Sequence record: OL770074.2
DNA length: 64,000 nucleotides
DNA from: Escherichia phage vB_EcoM-RPN187
Direction: 5' to 3' (one strand)
The notes under the pieces are model-generated. The model saw only the letters and a list, made by a program, of their open reading frames with translations, was not told where the DNA came from and did no database searches. Of the stretch, positions 1-12,021 are shown in pieces. Every line of letters starts with the position of its first letter. Within the stretch, counting starts at the first letter, position 1. The position numbers and the translations under genes are program-made.

Positions 1-421
1 ATGATTTGTGCTTGGCGAATTCAAGACCAGCGTAGTTGACAGCCTTAGCTAATTTATTATCAATGACCCATTTACCGGCTTTAGGCACAAACACCGGGCC
101 TTTCTGTTTAGAGAATAGTTTTAAATTCCAGCGACGAAGATCACTGTCGGCTTTAACAAAAGCTGCGTCTAAGTTACTAGCAACAACATCTTGAATATGG
201 CCAAATTTAAGCCCATCAACTTCAATATTTAAATCGGTACGCCAGCGAAGTCCTTCCCAAGCGAAGGCTTTAAAATCAGAAGCTTTTGTGGCTAGATATC
301 GTTCAAGTGGAGCAGTTTTAGGGTCAAAGCCGTTACCGCCACGATAAGTCCACTCGTCCTTATTAATGCCTTGAGCTTTTCCTGCAAAGGCCTCGGCGAT
401 AAATTCTTTATATGTTTTCAT
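1..421 (-). CDS. internal-protein-like protein with capsid-targeting-sequence N-terminus; C-terminal end lies beyond window start
   Basis: Not in ORF track (partial). Hand translation from ATG at 421-419 runs without stop to position 1: MKTYKEFIAEAFAGKAQGINKDEW... N-terminus matches the T4 IP capsid-targeting sequence (MKTYQEFIAE, from memory). Early promoter immediately upstream (452-481). Confidence 0.5.
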   Translation of the reverse strand, partial: MKTYKEFIAEAFAGKAQGINKDEWTYRGGNGFDPKTAPLERYLATKASDFKAFAWEGLRWRTDLNIEVDGLKFGHIQDVVASNLDAAFVKADSDLRRWNLKLFSKQKGPVFVPKAGKWVIDNKLAKAVNYAGLEFAKHKS

Positions 422-451
422 TTTTGTTTCCTTGTTTGTTTTGATAGAGTA

Positions 452-481
452 ATTATACCATATTAATACTTAAGCGTAAAC
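452..481 (-). promoter_or_regulatory. T4-type early promoter (-35 GTTTAC, 18-nt spacer, -10 TATAAT)
   Basis: Minus strand reads GTTTAC (476-481) then 18 nt then TATAAT (452-457), about 30 nt upstream of ATG at 421. Confidence 0.55.
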
Positions 482-484
482 TGT

Positions 485-745
485 TTAAGCTTTACCGCCG
501 GAAATAATTCCGAAGTTGTTAAAATCGTATCCAATATCGTCAACATCTACTTTAGGACTTGTAGCAACATAAGCAATTTCACTACGTTTTGCATAGGTGT
601 TGATTTCTTTACCATCGCCACCTAAGAAAAAATACCCATTACGTTTTAATGAGCCAAAGTCTTCCGCATCACCAATGAAAGCTTTAACTTTAAATTTAGG
701 ACCTTTGGCATCTGCTTCAGCGATAAATTCTTGATACATTTTCAT
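485..745 (-). CDS. internal-protein-like small protein with capsid-targeting-sequence N-terminus
   Basis: ORF track 86 aa; starts MKMYQEFIAE|ADAKG (I-A-E fits gp21 protease L/I-x-E cleavage consensus). ATG verified at 745-743. Confidence 0.55.
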   Translation of the reverse strand: MKMYQEFIAEADAKGPKFKVKAFIGDAEDFGSLKRNGYFFLGGDGKEINTYAKRSEIAYVATSPKVDVDDIGYDFNNFGIISGGKA

Positions 746-751
746 TTTTCC

Positions 752-1165
752 TTAGTAAATTGATTTACCATAGTATTTGTACCAAGTAGGACGTTGAGCA
801 ATTTTTTCATCTAAGCGTGCTTGACTTATCGCAATGGACGCTTCGGACGGGACATAATTATTACGAAATTCGGCAGGGATGTCGGAAATATCCTGGACAG
901 TCGTGTCCTTGATTTTGAAACCACGTTTCAAGCATTCAGCGATTAGCTCGATTTGTCGTAAACGTAAAAATTCGAGTTTGTCGTAAAAGAATGTTACGTG
1001 GCCGGTGCCTAAGATAAATGTTGGAGAGATTTTAAAATCCCTTACACGTTTACCGTTTTGAACATGTTTACGGACTGCACTAAATACACGTGGTAATTCA
1101 CGATACTCAGCCATAAGATGTTGGTCGGTCAGTTCAGAAACAAGTGTTAAATTGATACGAGTCAT
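752..1165 (-). CDS. denV: endonuclease V, pyrimidine-dimer DNA glycosylase
   Basis: [28 protein letters not shown]...[13 protein letters not shown] is near-identical to T4 DenV over its whole length (memory). ORF track begins at a TTG 4 codons upstream; ATG at 1165-1163 with GGAGGAA SD is the likely start. Confidence 0.9.
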
Positions 1166-1223
1166 AATTTCCTCCAAGTAGTTGATGAATGTATAATATC
1201 AAAACCCTTGGAGGAAGTAAACA

Positions 1224-1505
1224 CTATTTTTCTGAAGCGCCTGAAATATATTTTTCAAGACGTTGTTTCATTAGCGAGCCGTTCTTAGCGATTTCTTCCG
1301 GTTTATCGCACATACGCAACAAGGCTTCAAGCTTAACGATATCGCTGGTACGTTCAAATTTGCGAGTATCTATCTTACTAGCAAGTTCAGAAATACGTGC
1401 TAATAGACTTTCAGCTTCAACCAAAGCTGCGCCTAGCTTAGTTGCAAATGTGTCAGTAGCTTCGTTAAGAATAGATTCTGATAAAAATTCACTATATGTT
1501 TTCAT
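1224..1505 (-). CDS. internal-protein-like protein (ipII/ipIII position between denV and e)
   Basis: From ATG at 1505-1503: [10 protein letters not shown]|[10 protein letters not shown]..., 93 aa; ATGA overlap with lysozyme stop (1502-1504). ORF track starts 5 codons upstream at a TTG. Confidence 0.55.
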
Positions 1506-1990
1506 ATATACGCTTTCCAAGTTCCTGTTTTAAATGTTGAGATTACGCGTTTCGCGCGATTAGGTGTCTGACGATACCATTTAGATTGGGCTAGATTTAC
1601 TGCCGCTTCATCCCAACGTTTCTGTTGAAGCATACGAAGAGAATTAGTAAAACCAGCAACGCCTGCTACACCCATTTGGAAGACCATATTGACCAATGCA
1701 CATCGACGAACCGCATCTAAAGAATCATATACCGGTTTAAGTTTAGCATTACCCAAGATTCCTCGAACGGCTTTATCAACGTCTTCATTAAATAGCTTTT
1801 CGGCCTCATCAAGGGTAATTGTACCGTTGCATTTACGTCCGATCATTCTGTCAAGTTCAGCTTTAGCTACGGCTAAAGACGGGTTCTTTGTTACTAAATG
1901 ACCTATGCCAATCGTCCAAAAGCCTTCAGTGTCTTTGTATAAAGACAGTCTAAGACCTTCGTCATTACGAAGCATTTCAAATATATTCAT
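1502..1990 (-). CDS. e: lysozyme (endolysin), T4 e type
   Basis: [32 protein letters not shown]...[18 protein letters not shown]; near-identical to T4 lysozyme (memory). ATG at 1990-1988 preceded by GGAGG; ORF track starts at an upstream GTG. Confidence 0.95.
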
Positions 1991-2029
1991 AATACCTCCC
2001 ACGTTTATAGGAGGTATTTATTACTTATA
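1991..2029 (-). promoter_or_regulatory. hairpin sequestering the e ribosome-binding site, with late-promoter-like boxes
   Basis: Perfect 9-bp inverted repeat aatacctcc (1991-1999) / ggaggtatt (2010-2018); on the mRNA the 3' arm GGAGGUAUU is the SD directly before AUG. Loop contains TATAAACG and TATAAGTA lies at 2022-2029 (minus), resembling the late consensus TATAAATA. Confidence 0.6.
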
Positions 2030-2483
2030 GGAGGGTAGTGAGCACCTTATATAATGATTTGCCCATTACATATTCCCATTGAGAAGGTTTAATTAACGCG
2101 AATGCATCAAATTCAGGAATCTGTCTTCCGTCCGGGAACGTATGATAGGAATTACAAACACTGTTTCTGAATTGCTCGTGCTCTACAGGGATGGTATATA
2201 GGAACAGATGAATATTCTTATTGTCTGAGTAATGATGTTCACCTAGGTCTTTCAGGAAGGCAGGGTCATATTGTGTAAACCCAGTTTCTTCTTCGCATTC
2301 ACGAATAGCGGCTTCGATAGGAGATTCACCGGGCTCGACACGACCTTTAGGAATATCCCACCGATGAGCTAAAGAACCTTTAGGACGAGAACCAGTTACA
2401 CGCCCCATGAATAATTCTTTATCTTCGGTAAGGAAAATAATACCAGCTGATAGTTCTTTCACTTTATTTTTCTTACTCATCAT
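2025..2483 (-). CDS. nudE: Nudix hydrolase
   Basis: Nudix box-like GRVEPGESPIEAAIRECEEETGF; position next to e as T4 e.1/nudE. Start chosen at ATG with ATGA overlap to upstream stop; ORF track starts 5 codons earlier. Confidence 0.8.
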   Translation of the reverse strand: MMSKKNKVKELSAGIIFLTEDKELFMGRVTGSRPKGSLAHRWDIPKGRVEPGESPIEAAIRECEEETGFTQYDPAFLKDLGEHHYSDNKNIHLFLYTIPVEHEQFRNSVCNSYHTFPDGRQIPEFDAFALIKPSQWEYVMGKSLYKVLTTLL

Positions 2484-2971
2484 CTCAAATTCCTGCATTC
2501 GGTAATAAAACGTTCAACTTCATTATTCTTGGCCTTTATCTTGTCTTTATGTTCTTGTAAACTACTTTTAATAAGATTAATAATGATGGCGGCGGTACCG
2601 CCGCCAATGATGCCACCAACAACACTTATGATAATAGATGCTAATAAGATAGCAATAATATCAACAAAACCGAAAGAACTCACCTTAGTACTGAAAAACC
2701 ATATAGATGGTACAAATATAATCCATCCTGTTATCCATTGGCACTTATTGAAAAACTTTTCAAGCTCAGCTTGAGTTGTTCGTATTACTTCATCGATAGG
2801 TTGATATCCATTAATGTATCTGTTCACAATAATACCTGCTGGCTGGTCGATTTTAAATTCTTGGCAAATACGTTTCACTAAGTAGGATGGACATCCTGTC
2901 CATCCTACTGAATAGTATGAAATACCTTCGTTGCCATCGTCTATATTAGACCAATATGTTTTGTTAATCAT
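2480..2971 (-). CDS. hypothetical membrane protein, C-terminal FITECR motif
   Basis: ORF track 163 aa; hydrophobic/Gly-rich segment IIAILLASIIISVVGGIIGGGTAAIIINLI; ends ...ERFITECRNLR. Confidence 0.5.
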   Translation of the reverse strand: MINKTYWSNIDDGNEGISYYSVGWTGCPSYLVKRICQEFKIDQPAGIIVNRYINGYQPIDEVIRTTQAELEKFFNKCQWITGWIIFVPSIWFFSTKVSSFGFVDIIAILLASIIISVVGGIIGGGTAAIIINLIKSSLQEHKDKIKAKNNEVERFITECRNLR

Positions 2972-3657
2972 TACCAGCCTTCCATAGGGAATTCCAGATA
3001 AACTTGGGCGTTGACACGAATTTCATTGGTAATCTTTTTAAATCGGTCTGTATTACGAGATACACGTCCGAACCAACGCCATCCATTACTAATTGCACGA
3101 GAACCAGTGTGCCATGTTTGCCAATCAAACTGAAGAAGAGTACGATCTGGAGCTTCCCATTTCTCTAGTTCACCTTTTTCAATTTTTTCGAGGACTTCTT
3201 TGTGCCACTGGCGATAGATAAGTTCGCCATCAGGAATCTGACTGAACTCTGCAGTTCCTGTTGCAAAATGAGTAGGACACACATCAGCGTTAACAAGACC
3301 AAGAATATGTTCAGAATGGTAACGAGGGTTATCATAATCAGGTTGTCCTGCAGTAATAAAGTGTTGACCAACTGGAATATCAGGGCGTGGTACATCATCA
3401 TGGTGATATCCAGGAATAGCAGGATACCAACCAGGCATCAGCATGTGAACTCGTGAATCAAATACTACATCCGAGTCTTTCCAATCATCAGGAAGATTTT
3501 GGATAAAGCTACGAGTAATTGGGCCACCATTATCAAAAGCAAAATTCAAATCGCAGTTAAAGAACATAGGCTCGTTTTTAATCTGGTTGTTTTTAATCTC
3601 ATGAGCAAAACCACCTACTGCACGAGCTTGGCTATTAAACACTTTAGAACTATTCAT
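2971..3657 (-). CDS. hypothetical protein (HHDD motif; possible metal-dependent enzyme)
   Basis: ORF track 228 aa; ATG verified 3657-3655. Contains PGYHHDD and later His residues (YHSEH, WHTGSR). Fold not assignable by eye. Confidence 0.5.
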   Translation of the reverse strand: MNSSKVFNSQARAVGGFAHEIKNNQIKNEPMFFNCDLNFAFDNGGPITRSFIQNLPDDWKDSDVVFDSRVHMLMPGWYPAIPGYHHDDVPRPDIPVGQHFITAGQPDYDNPRYHSEHILGLVNADVCPTHFATGTAEFSQIPDGELIYRQWHKEVLEKIEKGELEKWEAPDRTLLQFDWQTWHTGSRAISNGWRWFGRVSRNTDRFKKITNEIRVNAQVYLEFPMEGW

Positions 3658-3658
3658 A

Positions 3659-3964
3659 TTATTTTCCTCGGCATTCTTTAATGAAATTTTCTAGATTGGT
3701 AGATTCAATAGCTTTTTTACGAGCTTCTGCGTGTTCTTCTTCAGACAATTTACATTTATAATTGACCCAGGCATTATGGTCGAAACTAGTCGTGGCATAT
3801 AATAACAATGCTCCGACGAATAATAAAAACGGTGATAAGAATACAAAACCAGGAACACCATCCATATCGTAAGCCTTTTGTAATACTGCAACAGAAAGGG
3901 CCGCGTAAAAAGGTGATGCAAATATTGTTAAAAGACCAATTCGGTTGGTTTCTGTTAATTTCAT
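3659..3964 (-). CDS. small membrane protein, C-terminal ENFIKECR motif
   Basis: ORF track 101 aa; two hydrophobic helices (LLTIFASPFYAALSVAVL, FVFLSPFLLFVGALLLYA); GAGGAG SD; ends ...NLENFIKECRGK. Confidence 0.5.
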   Translation of the reverse strand: MKLTETNRIGLLTIFASPFYAALSVAVLQKAYDMDGVPGFVFLSPFLLFVGALLLYATTSFDHNAWVNYKCKLSEEEHAEARKKAIESTNLENFIKECRGK

Positions 3965-3992
3965 ATTATTCTCCTCATGTTTTAATAGGACT

Positions 3993-4022
3993 ACTATAAC
4001 ATAGTCCTATCATGTTGTAAAC
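3993..4022 (-). promoter_or_regulatory. T4-type early promoter embedded in a stem-loop
   Basis: Minus strand GTTTAC (4017-4022), 18 nt, TATAGT (3993-3998); 9-bp inverted repeat ataggacta/tagtcctat (3985-4010) spans the -10 region. Confidence 0.55.
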
Positions 4023-4034
4023 AGTTTTGTGAAG

Positions 4035-4991
4035 TTATTTGAAAGGTTTCACCATATGAAAATTTTCTTTAAACCGTTTGATGTAATCATTTTTGCCGAG
4101 CTTATGATACATAGCCACTACTTCATAATAGTTCTCGTATGCGTACTCACGGAACCAACCAGAGGTGATGCTTGTACAGACCTTTTCCAATGCCATCATG
4201 AAACTGGCTTCAGGGTTAATTTTAAAGTCATTAGGAATCTGAGAACGTTCTAATGCTAGTACACATGATTCTTCGTATACACCGGCCAATTTGACCATTT
4301 CTGGTAATGATTCGAACTTCTCTCGTGAGGTCATGACTTCAGAACCGTCTTTCATATAAAATGTATACGCTGGACGGTCTGTTAGCGCAATGGCTTCATG
4401 AATAGTATCATGGTCATATGTATAGATGTCATCTTTAAAGAACGCACTTTTAGAAGTGTCAAGAACTGGGTGAGCATAGTTCAAGGTTTCTTTCTGGCGT
4501 TTCAGCATAATTTCAGTAAGTTCATCGTTCAGTGTAACACCTTTACCGCGAAGATACTGAATATGGTTCATAGTCTTTAAAAAGAATGGATTATTTTTCT
4601 TGAAACGATGAGACATCTTAATTGCAAGACACATCTCAGGAGTTGCCCAGTAAAACCCGTTCAAACGGTCTTTAGTCAAATTTTTCTTGGCGTATTTTAA
4701 AAGGTCATAAGAAGACGTGAAATCTTCAGGAGTGAGTTCACCGACTAATTCACGGACATTAGTGATTGCCGGAACAATATATGCTTCAAAATGAGTTTCG
4801 CGTCCGTTATGGAAACATTTGAAAACTTGGACACCAGGGTTATCTTGATGAACGTATACACCCATCATTTGATTTTTGAATGCATTCCAAGAACCTTGGT
4901 CTGCAATAAAGTCCCAGTCACTATTTTTGATAGCGTTAGAATCAATAAGACCGTGATAGTGAAGTGCACGAGAACCAATAACTAACATCAT
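4035..4991 (-). CDS. hypothetical protein, 318 aa (possible nucleotidyltransferase-like N-terminus)
   Basis: ORF track; ATG verified with GAGGAAA SD. N-terminus IGSRALHYHGL...NSDWDFIAD loosely resembles the GS...DxD motif of Pol-beta-fold nucleotidyltransferases; spacing is longer than typical. Confidence 0.5.
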   Translation of the reverse strand: MMLVIGSRALHYHGLIDSNAIKNSDWDFIADQGSWNAFKNQMMGVYVHQDNPGVQVFKCFHNGRETHFEAYIVPAITNVRELVGELTPEDFTSSYDLLKYAKKNLTKDRLNGFYWATPEMCLAIKMSHRFKKNNPFFLKTMNHIQYLRGKGVTLNDELTEIMLKRQKETLNYAHPVLDTSKSAFFKDDIYTYDHDTIHEAIALTDRPAYTFYMKDGSEVMTSREKFESLPEMVKLAGVYEESCVLALERSQIPNDFKINPEASFMMALEKVCTSITSGWFREYAYENYYEVVAMYHKLGKNDYIKRFKENFHMVKPFK

Positions 4992-5019
4992 AATATTTTC
5001 CTCGGATTAATTCATTAAC

Positions 5020-5271
5020 TTAAATTTCACGACATGCGATATCATATTCATCCCATAGGTCATCGTGTGAAGCCTCTACTAATGGAACGATTGTACCATT
5101 TATGTCTTCATTATAAGGGCAAATTGTACAGTGTGCATCTTCGAATCGGATGCCTTTGTGTTCAGATTTTTTATAACGCATATCGAATATCTTTGCAAAC
5201 TTTTCACGAGTAATGGTTTTAGCAACCACTTTGGTTCCAACACTTTCGTAATAAATCATTGTGGACTCCAT
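5020..5271 (-). CDS. hypothetical small protein
   Basis: ORF track 83 aa; own early promoter upstream (5288-5317); ATG verified 5271-5269. Confidence 0.45.
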   Translation of the reverse strand: MESTMIYYESVGTKVVAKTITREKFAKIFDMRYKKSEHKGIRFEDAHCTICPYNEDINGTIVPLVEASHDDLWDEYDIACREI

Positions 5272-5287
5272 TTAATTTGATAGGACT

Positions 5288-5317
5288 ACTATAACATAGC
5301 CCTATCTTGTTGTAAAC
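5288..5317 (-). promoter_or_regulatory. T4-type early promoter next to an imperfect stem-loop
   Basis: Minus strand GTTTAC (5312-5317), 18 nt, TATAGT (5288-5293); near-identical sequence to the 3993-4022 promoter. Confidence 0.55.
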
Positions 5318-5321
5318 TGTT

Positions 5322-5519
5322 TTAGCAAGAATAACTAGATGATACCCAGCCTTGAACAGTAATACTATTATTTGATACCGAGATTGCATTCTGGAGATTC
5401 AAACCTGCATTATCTTCAATCCACAATGTAACTTCTTCGCGTTCTTCTGTTGCAATTTGGAACAGGTTTTCTAGGGCAGCTACTGCCGTACGTACAGCAC
5501 AATCCAATTCACGAGACAT
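5322..5519 (-). CDS. small protein, member of tandem paralogue family with C-terminal GWVSSSxxC motif
   Basis: ORF track 65 aa; ends ...TVQGWVSSSYSC; ATG verified. Confidence 0.45.
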   Translation of the reverse strand: MSRELDCAVRTAVAALENLFQIATEEREEVTLWIEDNAGLNLQNAISVSNNSITVQGWVSSSYSC

Positions 5520-5528
5520 ATAGTTTCC

Positions 5529-5801
5529 TTAGCAAGTGTGAGAAGATGCAATCCAACCACCAGTTTCAAGGCTCAGGTTGTAGTCGTATTGGTAAACGTC
5601 AGCCCATTCAGCATAGCCGTTTTTTGTACAACGTTCAAGATCGGCTTTAAGTTGTCCGGGTGAATGATATGTTCCACCCATACCATAAGCTGGATACAAG
5701 TCGAATGTTGTGTTTTGTTTATCAGCAATTTCTTTGGCAGCCTCAATAGCTGCATAGATTTTTGCTACGGCTTCAGCCAGTTCGGTTTGTTCTTTAGACA
5801 T
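5529..5801 (-). CDS. small protein, member of tandem paralogue family with C-terminal GWIASSxxC motif
   Basis: ORF track 90 aa; ...YGMGGTYHSPG...ETGGWIASSHTC; stop runs into SD TAAGGAA of the next gene. Confidence 0.5.
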   Translation of the reverse strand: MSKEQTELAEAVAKIYAAIEAAKEIADKQNTTFDLYPAYGMGGTYHSPGQLKADLERCTKNGYAEWADVYQYDYNLSLETGGWIASSHTC

Positions 5802-5810
5802 AATGATTCC

Positions 5811-6116
5811 TTAGCACAACGCAGAAGACGAAACCCAAGCACCTTCAGTAATAACGTAACCATTACCTTCACGCTTAACATCGCCACCATTATTTTCAAT
5901 TTCATCTTTCATCCACTGGGATACGATTTCACCCTTAGGATAATAAGTACGACCGCTACCATAATCACCTACAGAAAATGATACGGCGTATTGGTCTGCG
6001 ATCTTTGTTGCTTCTTCTTCGATACGTTCAGCTTGATTCAGAAGTTTATAAATTGCATCTGAAGCGGATTTGGCATCATTAAACTCTGGTACTTTAATTT
6101 CAATAATCTTACTCAT
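5811..6116 (-). CDS. small protein, member of tandem paralogue family with C-terminal AWVSSSxxC motif
   Basis: ORF track 101 aa; ...GDYGSGRTYYPKG...TEGAWVSSSALC; ATGA overlap with upstream gene. Confidence 0.5.
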   Translation of the reverse strand: MSKIIEIKVPEFNDAKSASDAIYKLLNQAERIEEEATKIADQYAVSFSVGDYGSGRTYYPKGEIVSQWMKDEIENNGGDVKREGNGYVITEGAWVSSSALC

Positions 6117-6472
6117 TTTCTACATTCCTTAATAAAGTTTTCGATTGTTTCATTTTCACGTCTAGCTAGGAGTTCATTATAACTAATCATTTGAGAAGCG
6201 TAAACCTTTTTATTTTTCTTGTTATGGTTTATAAAATCGTAGTAAAAATAGACTACAGTACAAAATGATGCGATGGATGCAAAGGCTTGGGTATACCGTA
6301 AGTCCTGCCATTGGTCTGTGAATCCACCAGTGTTCCCTATAAATCCTAACACAACGCCGTCAATAAGAAATCCAACTAATCCAAAGGCAAATCCCATGCC
6401 AATACTCATAATAAAAATTAGAATGTTCTCACCAAGAGAAGGCCATACGGTTAAGAGTTGAGGCTTTTGCAT
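6113..6472 (-). CDS. membrane protein, C-terminal ENFIKECRK motif
   Basis: ORF track 119 aa; hydrophobic/Gly-rich segments (ILIFIMSIGMGFAFGLVGFLIDGVVLGFIG); ends ...ETIENFIKECRK. Confidence 0.5.
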   Translation of the reverse strand: MQKPQLLTVWPSLGENILIFIMSIGMGFAFGLVGFLIDGVVLGFIGNTGGFTDQWQDLRYTQAFASIASFCTVVYFYYDFINHNKKNKKVYASQMISYNELLARRENETIENFIKECRK

Positions 6473-6846
6473 CTTATTTCCTTAACGAATTCCATAGCTT
6501 CTTCATATTCGTACTTTTTAACAGCTTCATCATACTGAGCTTGGGCTTTTGCGCACTGAACTTTCCATTCTCTTAATCGGGCTCTATAATGACGTCCTTG
6601 GTGCCAATATCCTACCCAATTAATAGGCATTAATAAAAACGGTACAATAAGTGGTGCGACGAACATTAATGAAAATGCTGCATCAGACGATATAACTTCA
6701 CTAGAATCTAAAACAGCTCCTATAATCATAAAGATTAAAAATGCTAAAGCTAAAATAGGGCCAAATAGTACTTCGTTTGGGATTAATTTACGCTTGTATT
6801 CATACGCCCAGGGCTTAATTGGCATGTATAGGGTTGGCTTTGACAT
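6451..6846 (-). CDS. membrane protein (start uncertain)
   Basis: ORF track 6451..6876 starts at a TTG; first ATG at 6846-6844. Hydrophobic helices (FGPILALAFLIFMIIGAV, FSLMFVAPLIVPFLL); ends ...EFVKEIRCKSLNS. Confidence 0.4.
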   Translation of the reverse strand: MSKPTLYMPIKPWAYEYKRKLIPNEVLFGPILALAFLIFMIIGAVLDSSEVISSDAAFSLMFVAPLIVPFLLMPINWVGYWHQGRHYRARLREWKVQCAKAQAQYDEAVKKYEYEEAMEFVKEIRCKSLNS

Positions 6847-7411
6847 ATTCTCTACATTCCATAATAAATTGCTCAAGGATTAAATTGTTAGTGAAATTAG
6901 GACTAACAACCATGGTTTCATAAAGCGCATCAATAGCACTTAAAGCATCAACTCTTTTAAGCAAAGGCTTGCCTTCATACATAGTTTCAGAATCGACGAT
7001 TAACGTAAAGTAATATTTTTTATTATTGACCAGAACTTCTGTATCAATATAAAACATGTTAGATCTTAAAAGCTTATCTCTAAAACCATAATAATCTTCA
7101 GAGCGTTCGCTGATATATTCCAATTCAGTGTTTAAACAACAAACAGACCACGTAGGAGCAACGAAATCAGTGAATCTAATATCATGGTCTGCAACTAGTT
7201 TAGCAATAGCTCCGATATCATGAATCATAATACCTGGGGCTAATAAAGATTTTCGGTTATTTGCATATTCAGTTGTCTCATAAGAAGACGACCAGTACCA
7301 TTTACGTCCAGTTGCAACATATCGTAATGAATCAACTAAAGACGTAGGTGGATTTACCTTATTTCGGAACTCTTCGAACATTGAGTCAATATCATTATTT
7401 TGGTTTCGCAT
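6815..7411 (-). CDS. hypothetical protein with C-terminal EQFIMECRE motif
   Basis: ORF track 6815..7432; ATG at 7411-7409 with AAGGAG SD is the likely start (MRNQNNDIDSMFEEF...). Confidence 0.5.
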   Translation of the reverse strand: MRNQNNDIDSMFEEFRNKVNPPTSLVDSLRYVATGRKWYWSSSYETTEYANNRKSLLAPGIMIHDIGAIAKLVADHDIRFTDFVAPTWSVCCLNTELEYISERSEDYYGFRDKLLRSNMFYIDTEVLVNNKKYYFTLIVDSETMYEGKPLLKRVDALSAIDALYETMVVSPNFTNNLILEQFIMECREYVKANPIHAN

Positions 7412-7430
7412 GTTAACTCCTTTATTATCC

Positions 7431-7452
7431 AAAAGGAGGACCGGAGTCCTCC
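7431..7452 (-). terminator. intrinsic terminator-like hairpin
   Basis: 7-bp stem ggaggac/gtcctcc with cgga loop (7435-7452); minus strand followed by UUUU; lies 9 nt after the stop of the 7461..8054 gene. Confidence 0.4.
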
Positions 7453-7460
7453 GTATTATT

Positions 7461-8054
7461 TTATTTCAAAGAGTTAATATATTCTTGTACATCAGCAGAA
7501 GTGGTTTCGACACCAGCTGGAGTGCCATTGAACGTTTCAACACGAGTCAGAGTGTCTTCGATATCAACCTTAGTCAGTGCAGCGATTTCAATTACATCGT
7601 CAGCCGTAGAGATACCAAGGGCATTGGCTGCTCGAGTTTCACGAATGTATTCGAGTTTGATTGCCAGGTTCTGACGAGCATCGTCAAGTTCAACCACCTT
7701 ACGAGCAATTTCAATTCGCATAGCAGCGTACCCGTCAGCTTTTGTATTAAGTTGTTCGGCGGTTCGACGATACAGAAGACCAAGCTTAGCATGCATGGTA
7801 ACATCTTGTCCTTCAGCCAGGAGCTTACGAATTTCAAGTTCCTTAGAAGCGGCTTGCTTATTCTTTTCATTAACAAGTTCGCGAATACGTTTTTCTTCAT
7901 TAATAGATTTAACAGAAGCCGTTTTTAGTTCTTTGATTTGGGTAATCAACTTATCTGCGGCTGCGTTATACTGTTCTTCGACAGTCAGATTTTTAGCCAT
8001 AGCAGTACCCAGTTTAGTGCGGATGAATTCAACAAGTTTCTTCAGTGTGTTCAT
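7461..8054 (-). CDS. coiled-coil protein, possibly PspA/IM30-like
   Basis: ORF track 7461..8069; ATG at 8054 with GAAAGG SD. About 197 aa, predominantly helical/charged, resembling PspA by eye only. Confidence 0.45.
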
Positions 8055-8125
8055 ATTATTACCTTTCAATTGGTGGTTTATTATCCAATGAGAGCATTAT
8101 ACTCTGCTCTCAAGAGTTTGTACAC

Positions 8126-8407
8126 TTATTTGTACGAATTAATAATCTCTTCCATTTTATCCAGAACATGGATATCGATTATACGAGGAAGTGCCGAAAG
8201 ATTAGAACCGTCGAAAGATTTAAGGTCTTCCAAAATAATATTTTCAATGGCCTTTAAAGCTTCCGCAGATTCTGATGCAGAATTAAATTCAGGAATTTCT
8301 CCAAAAAGACGTAAGAATGAACCAAAGTATTCTGCGGCGATTTCTTTAGCTTGTTCGATATCAGACTTAAACATTTTGTTTTCCTCATTTGTTGGTGGAG
8401 TAATCAT
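8126..8407 (-). CDS. hypothetical protein
   Basis: ORF track 93 aa; ATG verified with AAGGATGG SD. Confidence 0.45.
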   Translation of the reverse strand: MITPPTNEENKMFKSDIEQAKEIAAEYFGSFLRLFGEIPEFNSASESAEALKAIENIILEDLKSFDGSNLSALPRIIDIHVLDKMEEIINSYK

Positions 8408-8431
8408 ATCACCATCCTTGGCGTTTGTACA

Positions 8432-8935
8432 TCATTTATTTTTAATTTTGCAAATTTTTTCTGCTTCAGCAATTGCAGCGTCAATGATGCTTTGTGCAAT
8501 TTTATTACTAGTTGACCTGGCAATCACACTAAGAACAATTTCTTTTTCTTCACCACCCCAACCCCAAGTCCTTTGTTCGTGGGTACCTTTAACTACAGCT
8601 GAAACTTCAACAGAACGTCCACCATCAGAAGTTTTAACATCTACAACCCAATCACCATCTTTCTCTTCTACCCTTGATTTATCCCAAGAAATACTAATAT
8701 ATGATTCGTTGTCAATAGAAGTCGCCGGGTTTTTCTCTACCGTAAGACCTTCACTTTCCAGCCATTCAATAGTATTTGCGCATAAATCGGAGGAACACCT
8801 CATCGGGAACCGGCAAGATTTTTCACCTTTAGATGCGGCGTTATACATCTTTTCTAAAATACGCTTTTGCACGTTTTTAAAAATAGTTTCAGCAGATTCT
8901 TCAGATTTTTTATTCAGTTCAGTATAAAGACTCAT
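8432..8935 (-). CDS. hypothetical protein
   Basis: ORF track 167 aa; ATG verified with AGGAAA SD; early promoter upstream. Confidence 0.5.
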   Translation of the reverse strand: MSLYTELNKKSEESAETIFKNVQKRILEKMYNAASKGEKSCRFPMRCSSDLCANTIEWLESEGLTVEKNPATSIDNESYISISWDKSRVEEKDGDWVVDVKTSDGGRSVEVSAVVKGTHEQRTWGWGGEEKEIVLSVIARSTSNKIAQSIIDAAIAEAEKICKIKNK

Positions 8936-8963
8936 AACATTTTCCTATGTTGTTGATAAGTCT

Positions 8964-8992
8964 ATAGTATCATGTCCTTAGAAGAAGTAAAC
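8964..8992 (-). promoter_or_regulatory. T4-type early promoter
   Basis: Minus strand GTTTAC (8987-8992), 17-18 nt, TACTAT (8964-8969). Confidence 0.5.
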
Positions 8993-9025
8993 ATCTTTAT
9001 GAAATATTTTTATGCCCTAGATACC

Positions 9026-9052
9026 AAAAAGCCCCAACCGTAAGGAAGGGGC
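9026..9052 (-). terminator. rho-independent terminator
   Basis: gcccc...ggggc stem (9031-9052) preceded on plus by aaaaa, i.e. followed by U-run on minus; just downstream of stop of 9059..9523. Confidence 0.6.
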
Positions 9053-9058
9053 ATTCTA

Positions 9059-9523
9059 TTATTTAATTTGTTTAGCAGACCAGATACGGTCTTTAATAAG
9101 TTTTTGGATATCTTCAACATACTCAAGGCTATGAGCGTGAGGATTATCTTTGAAGCTATGTGCTCGTGCCAGTTTCTGGCCTTCTGTTTTGATTACTAAA
9201 AGCTCTTTAAGAATTGCTTCATACTTAGAAATAATTCCTTTGGCGATATTTTTTTCTTGAGCGGCTTTAGGGTCCGCTTTTGGCGCAGGTGCTTTACCTG
9301 TAGCTTTCTGGAACAATTCACCTGATGCAGCTAGGCTTTTAAAAACTCGGCTAACAGTATTAGCATTAGTAAAACCTTCGGCTTTAAAATCTCTAATAAA
9401 ACGGAAACGTTCTTCATCAGAGGCGTCTTTGTAAGAATATTTACCTGCTCTAATTGCTGCAATCGCAGCGGCTTTTACATCTGAACTAGATTGTTCAGTC
9501 AAAAATTCAGCGTATGATTTCAT
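9059..9523 (-). CDS. internal-protein-like protein with capsid-targeting-sequence N-terminus
   Basis: ORF track 154 aa; MKSYAEFLTE|QSSSD...; Lys/Ala-rich; ATG verified 9523-9521. Confidence 0.55.
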   Translation of the reverse strand: MKSYAEFLTEQSSSDVKAAAIAAIRAGKYSYKDASDEERFRFIRDFKAEGFTNANTVSRVFKSLAASGELFQKATGKAPAPKADPKAAQEKNIAKGIISKYEAILKELLVIKTEGQKLARAHSFKDNPHAHSLEYVEDIQKLIKDRIWSAKQIK

Positions 9524-9567
9524 GTTGCTTTTCCTAAGTTAATTAACTTATCTATTTATTATTATGC

Positions 9568-9595
9568 AAAAAAGCCCCAACCTTTCGGAAGGGGC
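9568..9595 (-). terminator. rho-independent terminator closing the tRNA/stable-RNA transcription unit
   Basis: GCCCCUUCCGAAAGGUUGGGGC followed by UUUUUU on minus; near-copy of the 9026-9052 hairpin. Confidence 0.6.
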
Positions 9596-9602
9596 TATGC
9601 CT

Positions 9603-9905
9603 TGCGGCAACCTTGTCGGGGTTCCACCTGCTAAGGCAAGTGTTTGTACGAAACGCCGGGATTCGAACCCGGTTATTAAGCAGTTGACGCTACTCAATAT
9701 TTTTAAAAGGCCATATCTCGACCATATCCGAACGTTCCGTCAAAAACGCTACTCGGCTTACGGCAAAGATATTTCCTCGAATCGATAATTCTGTGCGCCG
9801 TTTCAGCTGTGATAGTAAAGAACCAGAACACAGTAAAACTGTGGGAGGAACTATACTCCAGGGAACATCAGTCCGACGACTTACCGGTAGCGACCCGGTT
9901 TCTTG
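9603..9905 (-). ncRNA. putative small stable RNA(s) downstream of tRNA-Arg, with tRNA-like T-arm
   Basis: About 300 nt with no credible ORF on the minus strand, between tRNA-Arg and a terminator. Contains a T-arm motif CCGGGUUCGAAUCCCGG (9655-9672) with possible acceptor pairing CGGAACG/CGUUUCG. T4 encodes stable RNA species at the same place (memory). Boundaries not resolved. Confidence 0.3.
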
Positions 9906-9907
9906 TT

Positions 9908-9983
9908 TGGTCGAGGCAGTAGGGGTCGAACCTACGACCTAGGACTTAGAAGGTCCTTGCTCTTCCTTCTGAGCTATGCCTCG
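9908..9983 (-). tRNA. tRNA-Arg (anticodon UCU)
   Basis: Hand-folded: acceptor CGAGGCA/UGCCUCG, D-arm GCUC..GAGC, anticodon loop CUUCUAA, T-arm GUAGG-UUCGACC-CCUAC, CCA encoded. Confidence 0.85.
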
Positions 9984-9987
9984 GATT

Positions 9988-10062
9988 TGGCGGACATGCA
10001 TGGATTCGAACCATGGACCAATTGATTAACAGTCAACTGCTCTACCACTGAGCTACACATCC
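9988..10062 (-). tRNA. tRNA-Asn (anticodon GUU)
   Basis: Hand-folded: acceptor GGAUGUG/CAUGUCC (two G-U pairs), D-arm UAGCUCAGUGGUAGAGC, anticodon loop CUGUUAA, T-loop UUCGAAU, CCA encoded. Confidence 0.75.
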
Positions 10063-10066
10063 AAAT

Positions 10067-10153
10067 TGGTTGGGAGTGATGGAGTCGAACCACCTGAGTC
10101 GCAATGACAATGGATTTACAGTCCACACCGCTACCTCTACGGGATAACTCCCC
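10067..10153 (-). tRNA. tRNA-Tyr (anticodon GUA), long variable arm
   Basis: 87 nt; anticodon stem GUGGA/UCCAU with loop CUGUAAA; T-arm GGUGG-UUCGACU-CCAUC; CCA encoded; 1:72 is a G-A mismatch so the 5' end is approximate. Confidence 0.7.
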
Positions 10154-10162
10154 AAATTAATT

Positions 10163-10237
10163 TGGTGGCCCTGGGTGGAATTGAACCACCATCTGGCGAT
10201 TATGAGTCGCTTGCTTGAACCTTCCAGCTACAGGGCC
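10163..10237 (-). tRNA. tRNA with anticodon CAU (elongator Met or lysidine-type Ile2)
   Basis: Acceptor GGCCCUG/CAGGGCC, anticodon loop CUCAUAA, T-arm GGUGG-UUCAAUU-CCACC, CCA encoded. Occupies the slot of T4 tRNA-Ile in the conserved order. Confidence 0.75.
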
Positions 10238-10238
10238 T

Positions 10239-10314
10239 TGGTGCTGATTGACGGAATCGAACCACCGACCTTCTCATTACAAGTGAGTTGCTCTACCTAC
10301 TGAACTAAATCAGC
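10239..10314 (-). tRNA. tRNA-Thr (anticodon UGU)
   Basis: Acceptor GCUGAUU/AAUCAGC perfect, anticodon loop CUUGUAA, T-loop UUCGAUU, CCA encoded. Confidence 0.8.
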
Positions 10315-10319
10315 AAAAC

Positions 10320-10409
10320 TGGCGGAGGCGATAGGATTTGAACCTATGAGTCGCCGGAGCGACTGCCGGTTTTCAAGACCGGTGCATTAAACCACTCTGC
10401 CACGCCTCC
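10320..10409 (-). tRNA. tRNA-Ser (anticodon UGA), long variable arm
   Basis: 90 nt; acceptor GGAGGCG/CGCCUCC, anticodon stem CCGGU/ACCGG with loop CUUGAAA, T-loop UUCAAAU, CCA encoded. Confidence 0.85.
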
Positions 10410-10411
10410 AG

Positions 10412-10485
10412 TCTCCATACAAGGATTTGAACCTTGGACCTCCTGATCCCAAATCAGGCGCTCTACCAAACTGAGCTACACGGAG
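10412..10485 (-). tRNA. tRNA-Pro (anticodon UGG), CCA not encoded
   Basis: Acceptor CUCCGUG/UAUGGAG, D-arm UAGCUCAGUUUGGUAGAGC, anticodon loop UUUGGGA, T-arm CAAGG-UUCAAAU-CCUUG. Confidence 0.8.
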
Positions 10486-10495
10486 TAAATTAAAT

Positions 10496-10569
<74 letters not shown>

Positions 10570-10574
10570 AAATT

Positions 10575-10661
10575 TGGTGCGAGAAGTGGGACTCGAACCC
10601 ACAAGGAAATCATTCCGCAGCATTTTAAGTGCTGTGCCTTTACCAATTTGACCATTCTCGC
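10575..10661 (-). tRNA. tRNA-Leu (anticodon UAA), long variable arm
   Basis: 87 nt; acceptor GCGAGAA/UUCUCGC, anticodon stem CAGCA/UGCUG with loop CUUAAAA, T-arm GUGGG-UUCGAGU-CCCAC, CCA encoded. Confidence 0.85.
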
Positions 10662-10662
10662 G

Positions 10663-10735
10663 CTGGGAATAAAGGACTCGAACCTTTGCATCCTGGAATC
10701 AAAATCCAGTGCCTTACCAACTTGGCTAATTCCCA
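10663..10735 (-). tRNA. tRNA-Gln (anticodon UUG), CCA not encoded
   Basis: Acceptor UGGGAAU/AUUCCCA, anticodon stem CUGGA/UCCAG with loop UUUUGAU, T-arm AAAGG-UUCGAGU-CCUUU. Confidence 0.8.
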
Positions 10736-10832
10736 ATTATTAACAAAGGCTCTCAAGCAAGAACCCTTGATGATAGAGGGTATTAATCAGTGCGATATGA
10801 GTTAATAATAACAAATAATTCTTAAAGCATAT

Positions 10833-11120
10833 TTACCATTTATGATAATACATATTTACGATGCATTCAAGACCCAAAGGATTCTTGAAAATATCATATT
10901 CAAGAGGACCTTTTTCCGTTTCAATAAAGAAATCAAAGTTAACTGTGTTAAATTTACGGTCTTCCTTTACTAATTTAACTTGAGAAGATGAACGGTCAAT
11001 GTAAACCTTTTCAACTTCAAAACATGTTAAAATGCCATAATCATCAATCAAGGCTTTAGCCGCATCTTGATCATATTTATATCCATTTTCAATGGATGAT
11101 ACTTTCGCATAAAGAATCAT
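10833..11120 (-). CDS. hypothetical protein
   Basis: ORF track 10833..11126 starts at TTG; ATG at 11120 with GAAGGT SD. Confidence 0.4.
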   Translation of the reverse strand: MILYAKVSSIENGYKYDQDAAKALIDDYGILTCFEVEKVYIDRSSSQVKLVKEDRKFNTVNFDFFIETEKGPLEYDIFKNPLGLECIVNMYYHKW

Positions 11121-11122
11121 TA

Positions 11123-11503
11123 TCAACCTTCATCAACAATAGTATGCGTATTGGCATTTACAATTTGCCACCAATCAAAGAGATTAGAACCATACATCAG
11201 TTTGTTTTCATTTTCTTTGATAATATCACGGAGTTCATCTTCAGTGGCGGCTTTCGCGATTAAATCAGCATATCCACCACGAGGATAATAATTATCACCT
11301 GCAAAAAGTAAAAAGTTTGGTTTAATGTTATTGAACTCTTCAAGAGTAATAACTTTTCCTGACGGTTGAACAATCTCTACATATTTATATCCCAATTTTT
11401 GAGCAGCATCTACTGCTTCAAGCAAAGTATCATGAGCCCATCCAATTTGACAACCTGGCTTTTCAGATGGATTAGCCTGATAATCCGCATACACTTTGTA
11501 CAT
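11123..11503 (-). CDS. hypothetical protein
   Basis: ORF track 11123..11542 starts at TTG; ATG at 11503 with AAAGGTGA SD gives 126 aa (MYKVYADYQ...). Confidence 0.4.
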   Translation of the reverse strand: MYKVYADYQANPSEKPGCQIGWAHDTLLEAVDAAQKLGYKYVEIVQPSGKVITLEEFNNIKPNFLLFAGDNYYPRGGYADLIAKAATEDELRDIIKENENKLMYGSNLFDWWQIVNANTHTIVDEG

Positions 11504-11504
11504 T

Positions 11505-11690
11505 CTATTCACCTTTAGAAATTTTATCCATAACGATAGCAATTAAACCAATTAAAAATGCTACTACAAGTGAAAACACATTTTCTGCTGTAGTTAATAA
11601 TCCGCATATAAATCCAACAAACATTGAAAAACTAAAAGCGGAAGCAGAAATTGCAATAGCAACATTTCGAATTAATTCACAACGTTTCAT
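11505..11690 (-). CDS. hypothetical small membrane protein
   Basis: ORF track 61 aa, largely hydrophobic; ATG verified; early promoter upstream. Confidence 0.35.
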   Translation of the reverse strand: MKRCELIRNVAIAISASAFSFSMFVGFICGLLTTAENVFSLVVAFLIGLIAIVMDKISKGE

Positions 11691-11718
11691 TTTATTCTCC
11701 TCTGTAGTTGATAGGGTA

Positions 11719-11748
11719 ATAGTATCACTACCCCATCTAAAAGTAAAC
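11719..11748 (-). promoter_or_regulatory. T4-type early promoter
   Basis: Minus strand GTTTAC (11743-11748), 18 nt, TACTAT (11719-11724). Confidence 0.5.
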
Positions 11749-12021
11749 TCATTTTAAATAAATTGCGTATTTTTTATAGCCACCAGGCTCGTGTCGAAGA
11801 CCCTTATCATTAGCAAAACGCTCAATGTTGTTAATTTGATTCTGGTCAAGTTCAGAGATGTCAAACACGAAATAGTTACGTTTGTTACCAACTGTTACAT
11901 AGTCAGTTAAATCAATACCATATAGGTAATTGATGTCAGCAATCATAGTCTTGACAGCTTTGCTAATTTTTACTTTTTCGTTAAAAGTAGCTTCATTGAT
12001 AAATTCTTTAAATGTTTTCAT
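11749..12021 (-). CDS. internal-protein-like small protein with capsid-targeting-sequence N-terminus
   Basis: ORF track 90 aa; MKTFKEFINE|ATFNE...; ATG verified 12021-12019. Confidence 0.55.
   Translation of the reverse strand: MKTFKEFINEATFNEKVKISKAVKTMIADINYLYGIDLTDYVTVGNKRNYFVFDISELDQNQINNIERFANDKGLRHEPGGYKKYAIYLK

Follow-up and report, generated by a model that had tools for sequence, protein, structure and literature searches.

A short C-terminal tail shared by clustered early accessory proteins of T4-like phages

The DNA analysed here (the window) is a stretch of 64,000 nucleotides from Escherichia phage vB_EcoM-RPN187, sequence record OL770074.2. Five genes on its minus strand, the homologues of T4 e.2, e.3, e.4 and e.5 and of RB69 ORF133c, encode proteins that share a short C-terminal tail with the core F-[I/V]-x-x-C-R. 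Judged by sequence comparison, the tail is real, conserved and kept at the protein level, and it defines a cluster-specific set of early accessory proteins of the Tevenvirinae. The window itself can be assigned to Mosigvirus, the RB69-type genus of T4-like phages; many genomes of RB69-like phages are 95-97% identical to it, and phage AV113 is 99.4% identical over positions 2000-9600.

Results

All five open reading frames (ORFs) named in the original prediction are present on the minus strand:

2480-2971, minus strand: e.2 homologue, 163 amino acids (aa), phrog_2203 (E 4e-53)
3659-3964, minus strand: homologue of RB69 ORF133c, 101 aa, phrog_9798
6113-6472, minus strand: e.3 homologue, 119 aa, phrog_2330
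6451-6846, minus strand: e.4 homologue, 131 aa from the ATG at 6846, phrog_2604, two predicted transmembrane (TM) segments
6815-7411, minus strand: e.5 homologue, 198 aa, soluble, phrog_2607

The proteins match five different PHROGs over their full length (2203, 2330, 2604, 2607 and 9798; E 4e-50 to 2e-94), and in tblastn comparisons the window proteins are 35-47% identical to their T4 orthologues. Gene order from nudE to the tRNA cluster, on the early strand, is that of RB69 and T4, and the lengths and tails of the window genes likewise match those of the orthologues. A local sequence search of Pfam, NCBIfam and PDB gave no match for the five proteins or for the neighbouring e.6; newer, precomputed Pfam entries place e.2 and e.5 in two separate families, PF26896 and PF26876.

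The tail in the window

The C-terminal motif proposed to be common to these genes is real. F[IVL]xE[CI]R has five matches in the six-frame translation of the 64 kilobases (kb), 127,996 residues, where residue frequencies predict 0.36; FIxECR is seen four times with 0.03 expected. In 200 shuffles of the DNA the first pattern occurs 0.33 times on average and at most three times. All five matches are the genes listed above, on one strand and within 5 kb, with 1-11 codons left before the stop. Scored with a position matrix derived from other phages alone, the five genes reach 30.7 to 12.2 bits, and the next window position 8.4 bits.

The tails of e.2 (V-E-R-F-I-T-E-C-R, 2492-2518; motif 2492-2509, ERFITECRNLR), ORF133c (L-E-N-F-I-K-E-C-R, 3668-3694; motif 3668-3685, ENFIKECRGK) and e.3 (I-E-N-F-I-K-E-C-R, 6119-6145; motif 6119-6136, ENFIKECRK) run into the stop codon within a few residues. 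e.4 has a degenerate tail, M-E-F-V-K-E-I-R-C-K at 6472-6498 (motif 6472-6489, EFVKEIRCKSLNS before the stop), with Ile replacing Cys. The tail of e.5, L-E-Q-F-I-M-E-C-R, lies at 6851-6877 (motif 6851-6868, EQFIMECREYVKANPIHAN before the stop); this protein had been described as ending at the motif, and 11 further residues follow it. TM segments, previously counted in three of the proteins, are predicted in four (e.2, ORF133c, e.3 and e.4). e.2 has a soluble domain at its N-terminus, two TM segments and then a basic C-terminal stretch of 32 aa with the tail at its end; ORF133c has two TM segments and a charged C-terminal region of 46 aa.

Conservation across Tevenvirinae

Regions upstream of nudE were taken from six further genera besides the window and T4, namely Gaprivervirus VR7, Dhakavirus-like LQ5, Winklervirus LC53, the Jiaodavirus-like Klebsiella phage Biddle, Karamvirus EnA02 and Roskildevirus FBB1. 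Together they hold 36 curated tails in eight genomes of eight genera, three to six per genome, and bear out the expected conservation in T4-like phages, T4 included. All four T4 orthologues keep the tail (e.5 EKFVKECREYVKA..., e.4 MKFVKESRCKSQS, e.3 KEFVIDCRKIK and e.2 NNFITECRKLK); its variants in the six further genera include FIKGCRK, WIKGCRK, FIKHCREAVNG, FINDCRKARK, FLKEIRND and YVKECRRK. The core consensus is h(-3)-x-x-[F/W](0)-[I/V](+1)-x-x-[C/I](+4)-R(+5), where h is hydrophobic; positions +2 and +3 are called x2 and x3 below. Position 0 is F in 31 tails, W in four and Y in one, followed by I, V or L; position +4 is C in 26 and otherwise I, L, V or S; and position +5 is R in 34 and K in two. 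Every instance sits 0-12 residues from the C-terminus.

A matrix trained without T4 was run over the whole T4 genome, covering 58,822 positions in 412 six-frame ORFs of 50 aa or more. e.2, e.5 and e.4 come out on top with 26.1, 20.3 and 15.0 bits, and noise sets in from 9.3 bits; T4 e.3 scores 8.7 bits, just inside the noise. By the scans of T4 and the window, the tail is confined to this one gene cluster. In one Slopekvirus and one Pseudotevenvirus, of which the nudE neighbourhoods were scanned, no similar tails were found near nudE.

A hidden Markov model of the tail alone gives 18-30 bits on true tails of other genera, too weak for libraries of a billion proteins. A protein homologue search with e.2 returned close relatives only. 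The e.5 profile found only 30 clusters among 1.84 billion representative proteins. Each of the 22 distant full-length members retrieved has h-x-x-F-[IV]-x-x-C-[RK]-x-x-[VLI]-K at its end, x2 and x3 being free. By tblastn two distant e.5 members lie in T4-like phages of ~170 kb, almost all of Enterobacterales; for three distant representatives no loci were found in IMG/VR.

The e.6 homologue (7461-8054, minus strand; 197 aa, helical, no TM segment) ends in V-Q-E-Y-I-N-S-L-K, a weak echo of the tail (h-x-x-Y-I-x-x-L-K) that scores below the threshold in the position-matrix scan. An ending of the form [ED]-Y-[IL]-x-S-L-K recurs in five other genomes (T4, LQ5, LC53, Biddle and EnA02), and e.6 may be a degenerate tail member or a partner. 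A PspA-like identity for e.6 was dropped, there being no Pfam match.

Selection on the protein

The codon differences quoted in the original prediction as a sign of protein-level selection exist and hold across the 36 instances. The Arg of the tail is encoded by AGA (14), CGT (7), CGA (5), AGG (5) and CGC (3), thus by both codon families, Cys by TGT (14) and TGC (12), and Phe by TTT (22) and TTC (9). Most of the information lies in the first two codon positions and little in the third. In the e.5 family, with ~15% identity between genera, six to seven residues in all are invariant, M1, S89, N94, F182, C186 and R187 among them, and in the e.3 family (18 homologues) M1, F70, K89, F113 and C117; the Phe, Cys and Arg of the tail belong to these in e.5, and its Phe and Cys in e.3. 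Amino-acid conservation at a family identity of ~15% needs protein-level selection, and selection acts on the tail as protein. In e.4-type groups Cys is exchanged for I, L, V or S. Because of these substitutions a catalytic or metal-binding Cys was rejected, and a role in packing seems more plausible.

Carriers of the tail

To call the carriers a family, as was done at the outset, is misleading, since profile-profile comparison detects no homology between groups once the tail is left out. BLAST divides the 36 carriers into 21 groups at E < 1e-5. Between the larger groups hhalign gives 60-89% probability, confined to the tail region, and every pair falls below 8% when the tail is removed, in alignments shallow enough for very remote homology to escape. 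With no profile similarity left outside it, the tail appears to be a shared C-terminal module rather than part of one protein family.

One or two TM segments are predicted in 26-27 of the 36 carriers. The membrane carriers have a common layout: a short N-terminus is followed by one or two TM segments, then by a K/R/E-rich region of 29-84 residues, and finally by the tail. The e.5 family and two further proteins are soluble, with the tail 5-12 residues before the end.

The membrane carriers might still be diverged tandem paralogues in which the tail is the slowest-evolving piece, serving for example homo-oligomerisation with no shared partner; we consider this unlikely. The genes are clustered and built alike (short N-terminus, TM hairpin, charged helix, tail), and a web of weak BLAST matches extends over TM segments plus tail, as in ORF133c, which weakly matches the e.2 PHROG over this part (E 0.003). 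These matches were, however, made without composition correction on hydrophobic sequences, they leave no trace in the profiles without the tail, and the soluble e.5 family and the two other soluble proteins carry the tail without a TM region. Common descent concerns the origin of the tail and is compatible with the docking function considered below.

Topology and predicted structure

TM prediction, charge distribution and AlphaFold2 (AF2) models support the earlier picture of mostly small membrane proteins with a cytoplasmic tail. Lys and Arg number 0-2 in the loops between TM segments, 7-16 in the C-terminal regions and 0-15 in the N-terminal regions; by the positive-inside rule these counts predict an N-in/C-in topology in the inner membrane, with the tail in the cytoplasm. 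The mean hydrophobic moment of the tails is 0.55, versus 0.35 (standard deviation 0.17) in shuffled tails, and the hydrophobic positions -3, 0/+1 and +4 (also +8 in e.5) share one helix face. In the AF2 model of e.3 (18 homologues, pLDDT 77) TM1 is a helix at 13-45, and an unbroken helix at 59-118 is formed by TM2 continuing as a stalk of ~40 residues, with the tail at its end. The model of e.5 is poor (pLDDT 59.7), with a helical tail at 176-192; a Foldseek search with it against PDB gave no match (best E 0.05, TM score at most 0.25).

A possible docking helix

The tail could be a common docking or assembly helix of several unrelated early accessory proteins, a proposal that we hold to be about evenly balanced between right and wrong. 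It is a protein-level C-terminal module, a short amphipathic helix, which in most carriers is predicted to cap a charged helical stalk of 30-80 residues extending the last TM helix. By means of it, unrelated early accessory proteins of the Tevenvirinae would contact one common partner at the cytoplasmic face of the inner membrane; candidates are the carriers themselves (membrane members recruiting e.5, for example) or a single host or phage protein. The tail codons in addition carry the Shine-Dalgarno (SD) sequence of the next packed gene, which fixes two free residues and the Arg codon. The docking element is suggested by an amphipathic helix that recurs on unrelated, co-expressed carriers, several per genome, exposed at the end of a stalk; from this we infer both the role as an interaction surface and what the tail may bind. 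As in a short linear docking motif, the tail is conserved on unrelated carriers, under protein-level selection, and is predicted to be exposed at a helix end.

Several points weigh against docking. In CRISPRi-ART data T4 e.2-e.6 are listed with 'unknown function', and their knock-downs are scored 'Not Fit' (PMC11879866, supplementary files 8 and 15), which we read as no detectable fitness effect; the genes are thus taken as neutral in the laboratory host, and there is no phenotype for the tail. These scores are the only functional data found, and superinfection exclusion, lysis timing and defence evasion, proposed at the outset, stay hypothetical roles. A purely structural or self-stabilising helix would equally yield protein-level conservation. 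The structural models are of single chains, and any partner is putative. With a model as poor as that of e.5, its tail helix may simply belong to the fold; moreover, AF2 favours long single helices for charged sequences, and the stalk is a predicted one.

A further step, possible but offered with more doubt, is that the tail serves as an 'address tag', a docking helix that plugs a changing set of three to six unrelated early effectors into one hub. If this is true, several membrane-anchored effectors and a soluble one would converge on one inner-membrane hub of host or phage origin, new effectors could be recruited merely by gaining the tail, and T4-like phages would possess a modular effector-recruitment system acting in host takeover. 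Its logic would be comparable to that of the capsid-targeting sequence. T4 has such terminal address peptides in the N-terminal capsid-targeting sequence and in the C-terminal tails of gp43, gp33 and gp55, which bind the gp45 clamp. Like these, the tail is a short conserved terminal peptide on unrelated proteins that would reach one common partner, and it partly resembles the capsid-targeting sequence (EFIxE). It differs in its consensus (F-I/V-x-x-C-R, Glu not conserved), in its early accessory, mostly membrane carriers, and in its place at the C-terminal tip of a membrane-anchored stalk.

A membrane-targeting amphipathic helix in the cytoplasmic leaflet, with no protein partner, would attach e.5 peripherally to the membrane and anchor the TM proteins in its plane; the chances of this are rather slim. 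Helices of this kind are found at the C-termini of MinD and FtsA, and the tail shares with them the C-terminal position, the amphipathic character (moment as above; helical in both AF2 models) and an aromatic and aliphatic face with flanking K/R; it also occurs on soluble proteins encoded among membrane proteins. Whereas the MinD/FtsA type is the sole membrane anchor of a soluble protein, most carriers of the tail (26-27 of 36) are membrane-spanning anyway. In these, 29-84 mostly charged residues, which the models draw as a single straight helix, lie between the last TM segment and the tail. Acidic residues are common in the motif (E at -2 and +3), and the near-invariant F and R and the predominant Cys go beyond what is usual for the lipid-binding helices of MinD and FtsA.

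Recombination and gene gain and loss

At the e.3-nudE junction of phage T2 the sequence follows T4 e.3 up to GATTGCAGGAAA and then the end of T4 e.2 from TGCAGGAAA onward (T2 5300-5400 versus T4 5300-5400 and 5784-5884, in coordinates of the fetched loci). The crossover falls within the shared TGCAGGAAA, the C-R-K codons, and leaves an intact hybrid tail, FVSDCRKLK. The junction therefore records the loss of e.2 from T2 (or its gain in T4) through recombination between the C-R-K codons of two tails. Since this junction lies inside tail codons, tails can act as in-frame breakpoints, and the crossover therefore shows how a tail can be acquired or exchanged in frame; a single event does not make breakpoint use the reason for tail conservation.

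It is improbable that tail codons, SD and ATG are kept as a DNA cassette junction, that is, as a recombination site for in-frame gene gain and loss. The T2 crossover, which removes e.2 and restores a tail, would suit such a junction, but it is the only event of its kind found, and the deletions of e.3 in phage moha and of ORF130c in the window do not use tails. Identity between tails extends over 9-12 nucleotides only, synonymous sites vary freely, and the conservation of amino acids in families of ~15% identity needs protein selection.

In Mosigvirus moha, e.3 is deleted save for its last 30 codons, which lie unannotated between e.4 and the next gene (4001-4090 of the fetched locus). As this phage has lost most of e.3, individual tail-bearing genes are dispensable in nature. 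ORF130c (78 aa) is situated between e.2 and nudE in RB69, mogra, VR7, LQ5 and LC53, and is missing in the window (2480-2483), AV113 and AV112. The longest nudE frame begins with MQEFEM, as does the RB69 ORF130c frame, which suggests that ORF130c was removed by a precise deletion from start codon to start codon. T4 e.2 is split into two overlapping ORFs (NC_000866, 67472-67960; 5360-5847 of the fetched locus): the annotated e.2 (102 aa) is the N-terminal part only, and the last TM segment and FITECRKLK tail belong to an ORF of 63 aa that lacks annotation. In other genera the gene is intact, with 163-197 aa; T4 e.2 is therefore either a frameshifted pseudogene or two genes.

Shine-Dalgarno sequences in the tail codons

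The next gene starts -1 to +11 nucleotides from the Arg codon in 31 of the 36 instances, and in 29 the tail codons themselves include an SD-like run. If the start is +5 nucleotides away or closer, the SD occupies x2-x3 (AAG-GAA, AAA-GGA or GAG-GAA, read as K-E, K-G or E-E). With starts at +7 to +10 it is found in the Arg and the following codon (AGG-A, CGA-GGA or AGA-GGT), and with starts farther away it lies downstream. All five AGG codons for Arg have the start at +8 to +10. x2-x3 are SD-like in 16 of 16 tails with a start at or before +2, versus 6 of 20 otherwise (Fisher p = 1.3e-5, the orthologues not being independent). Switches occur within groups: e.3 has I-D in T4 with the start at +8, and K-E in VR7, LQ5 and the window with the start at +2, while e.2 has E-E in VR7 and LQ5, and T-E in T4 and the window.

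In the window the stop of e.2 overlaps the nudE start (ATG 2483-2481), and the nudE SD, AGGA, lies within the e.2 R and N codons. The ORF133c tail contains AGGA in its CGA-GGA (R-G) codons, and the next gene, the ORF132c homologue, starts at 3657. The e.3 stop and the start of the gene after it share ATGA (6116-6113), with TAAGGA in the e.3 I-K-E codons. The e.3 start codon (6472-6470) overlaps the R/C codons of e.4, and the e.4 start (6846) is 4 nucleotides past the e.5 Arg codon.

The K-E of FIKECR, the choice of Arg codon and the residue at +6 are thus set by the downstream ribosome-binding site, and F, I/V, C and R are not. The original prediction had allowed that translation signals might contribute to the motif, and this holds for x2-x3 and the Arg codon; F, I, C and R stay fixed while the SD slides. 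As a full explanation, overlapping initiation signals are largely refuted. That the motif is a mere by-product of the SD and start codon of a packed downstream gene is very improbable, in spite of the proximity of starts, the SD-like runs, the dependence of x2-x3 on start distance with its matching switches within families, and the placement of the AGG codons. The SD moves from x2-x3 to R/+6 and further downstream with F, I/V, C and R unmoved, and F and I/V are upstream of any SD. Arg alternates between AGR and CGN, and third codon positions hold little information. The e.5 family keeps the motif with x2-x3 free and with starts up to +25 nucleotides away. Bases at synonymous sites are not conserved at a fixed spacing to the start codon, as they would be in an SD element.

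Packed phage operons, with ATGA overlaps and an SD within the upstream ORF, likewise have the downstream SD and start in the last codons of the upstream gene, where they constrain the choice of residues and codons. The difference is that here the SD is threaded through a conserved motif, in the positions that the protein leaves free (x2-x3, wobble and family of the Arg codon, and +6). The locus is a clean natural example of dual coding, in which the choice of residue and codon is predictable from the distance to the next start.

Comparison with capsid-targeting and FtsZ peptides

Like the SD-only reading, the capsid-targeting one fails direct tests, and the likelihood that the tail is a prohead-targeting or protease-cleavage signal is negligible. 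The tail has E-F-I-x-E in common with MKTYQEFIAE|A, which in T4 internal proteins is both capsid-targeting sequence and gp21 cleavage site (cut at the bar); TYQEFIAEA of ipII is the sixth-best match in the T4 genome scan (8.1 bits), and four window ORFs carry MK[TS][YF]xEF[IL]xE N-termini. The tail is, however, C-terminal, with none of the 36 instances N-terminal after Met. The Glu of the (L/I)-x-E cleavage triplet is present at x3 in 20 of 36 tails; it is not kept outside E. coli phages (FIKGCR, FIKHCR, FIKYCR, FVKMCR, WIKGCR), being absent from most tails of Klebsiella, Serratia, Enterobacter and Erwinia phages and from most distant e.5 representatives. The invariant C-R is without counterpart in the targeting sequence, and integral membrane proteins are unlikely prohead cargo.

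The four window ORFs (485-745, 1224-1505, 9059-9523 and 11749-12021, minus strand) conform to MK[MTS][YF]xEF[IL]xE. As they begin with this capsid-targeting and gp21-cleavage signature, the phage probably encodes several internal-protein-like cargo proteins scattered around the region.

Mimicry of the FtsZ C-terminal peptide, with the consensus D-[IL]-P-x-F-[LI]-[RK]-[RK], was also rejected. None of the 36 tails has Pro at -2, most have E or G at +3, and FtsZ has nothing that corresponds to the invariant C-R; the common part is limited to h-x-x-F-[IL]-[KR].

Gene map and neighbouring features

Gene names on the minus strand of positions 1-11000 were assigned from the annotations of RB69 and T4. 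Besides the genes given above, the map contains:

1502-2002, minus strand: e lysozyme, preceded in the map by denV and then an internal-protein-like ORF
2025-2483, minus strand: nudE
2971-3657, minus strand: homologue of RB69 ORF132c, next after ORF133c
3993-4021, minus strand: promoter-like TTTACA-17-TATAGT with TG (sigma-70/T4-early-like), by consensus scan
4035-4991, minus strand: ORF134c, DUF7275/DUF7277
5322-6116, minus strand: three small paralogues beside ORF135c
6113-6472, 6451-6846, 6815-7411 and 7461-8054, minus strand: e.3, e.4, e.5 and e.6, then frd.3 and others
7435-7452, minus strand: hairpin GGAGGAC-TCCG-GTCCTCC with a perfect GC-rich stem of 7 base pairs and a T-run, by consensus scan
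9908-10735, minus strand: block of ten tRNAs (Arg, Asn, Tyr, Met, Thr, Ser, Pro, Gly, Leu, Gln)

The promoter match at 3993-4021 is located in the gap before ORF133c, upstream of the ORF133c-ORF132c-e.2-nudE block, and a second TTTACA-17-TATAGT site at 5288-5316 in the gap upstream of ORF135c. The terminator-like hairpin at 7435-7452 occupies the gap of 50 nucleotides between e.6 and e.5, upstream of the packed e.5-e.4-e.3 block. Hairpin and promoter-like sites are reminiscent of the promoter/stem-loop cassettes known from T4-type genomes, where they occur in plastic regions.

The tRNA content resembles that of T2; RB69 and mogra carry just tRNA-Met and tRNA-Arg at that place. Downstream of tRNA-Arg, ~380 non-coding nucleotides (9524-9907) include a conserved stretch shared with the T4 rnaC region, for which Rfam has no match. 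An Rfam scan of positions 1-12000 returned tRNAs only, and no RNA family at the tails.

The tandem small paralogues (65-101 aa) between e.3 and ORF135c lie at 5811-6116, 5529-5801 and 5322-5519 on the minus strand. They number three in the window and five each in VR7 and Klebsiella phage Biddle (3307-4566 and 2852-4424 of the fetched loci). Each terminates in W-[VILYQ]-x-S-S-x-x-C, whose Cys is the final residue and whose W, S, S and C are invariant; in one subgroup the motif occurs twice (WLNSSC...WYPSSC). Matches were obtained to PHROGs 899 and 4882, and none in Pfam.

Discussion

e.2, e.3, e.4, e.5 and ORF133c are annotated only as hypothetical or predicted membrane proteins and filed as separate, unrelated families. 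The shared tail appears in none of the annotations found for these families, no paper describing it was found in the open-access literature, and the literature on the function of e.2-e.6 yielded nothing relevant beyond tables of 'unknown function'.

A tail of nine residues is kept across at least eight genera while the remainder of the proteins is unrelated or down to ~15% identity. No other feature of these proteins is as constrained, which makes the tail a common point of entry for experiments on the whole set. Even in T4, which has been studied more closely than any other large phage, e.2-e.6 and dozens of comparable accessory genes lack an assigned function. A common partner of the tail, if one exists, would place a large group of uncharacterised Tevenvirinae genes in a pathway.

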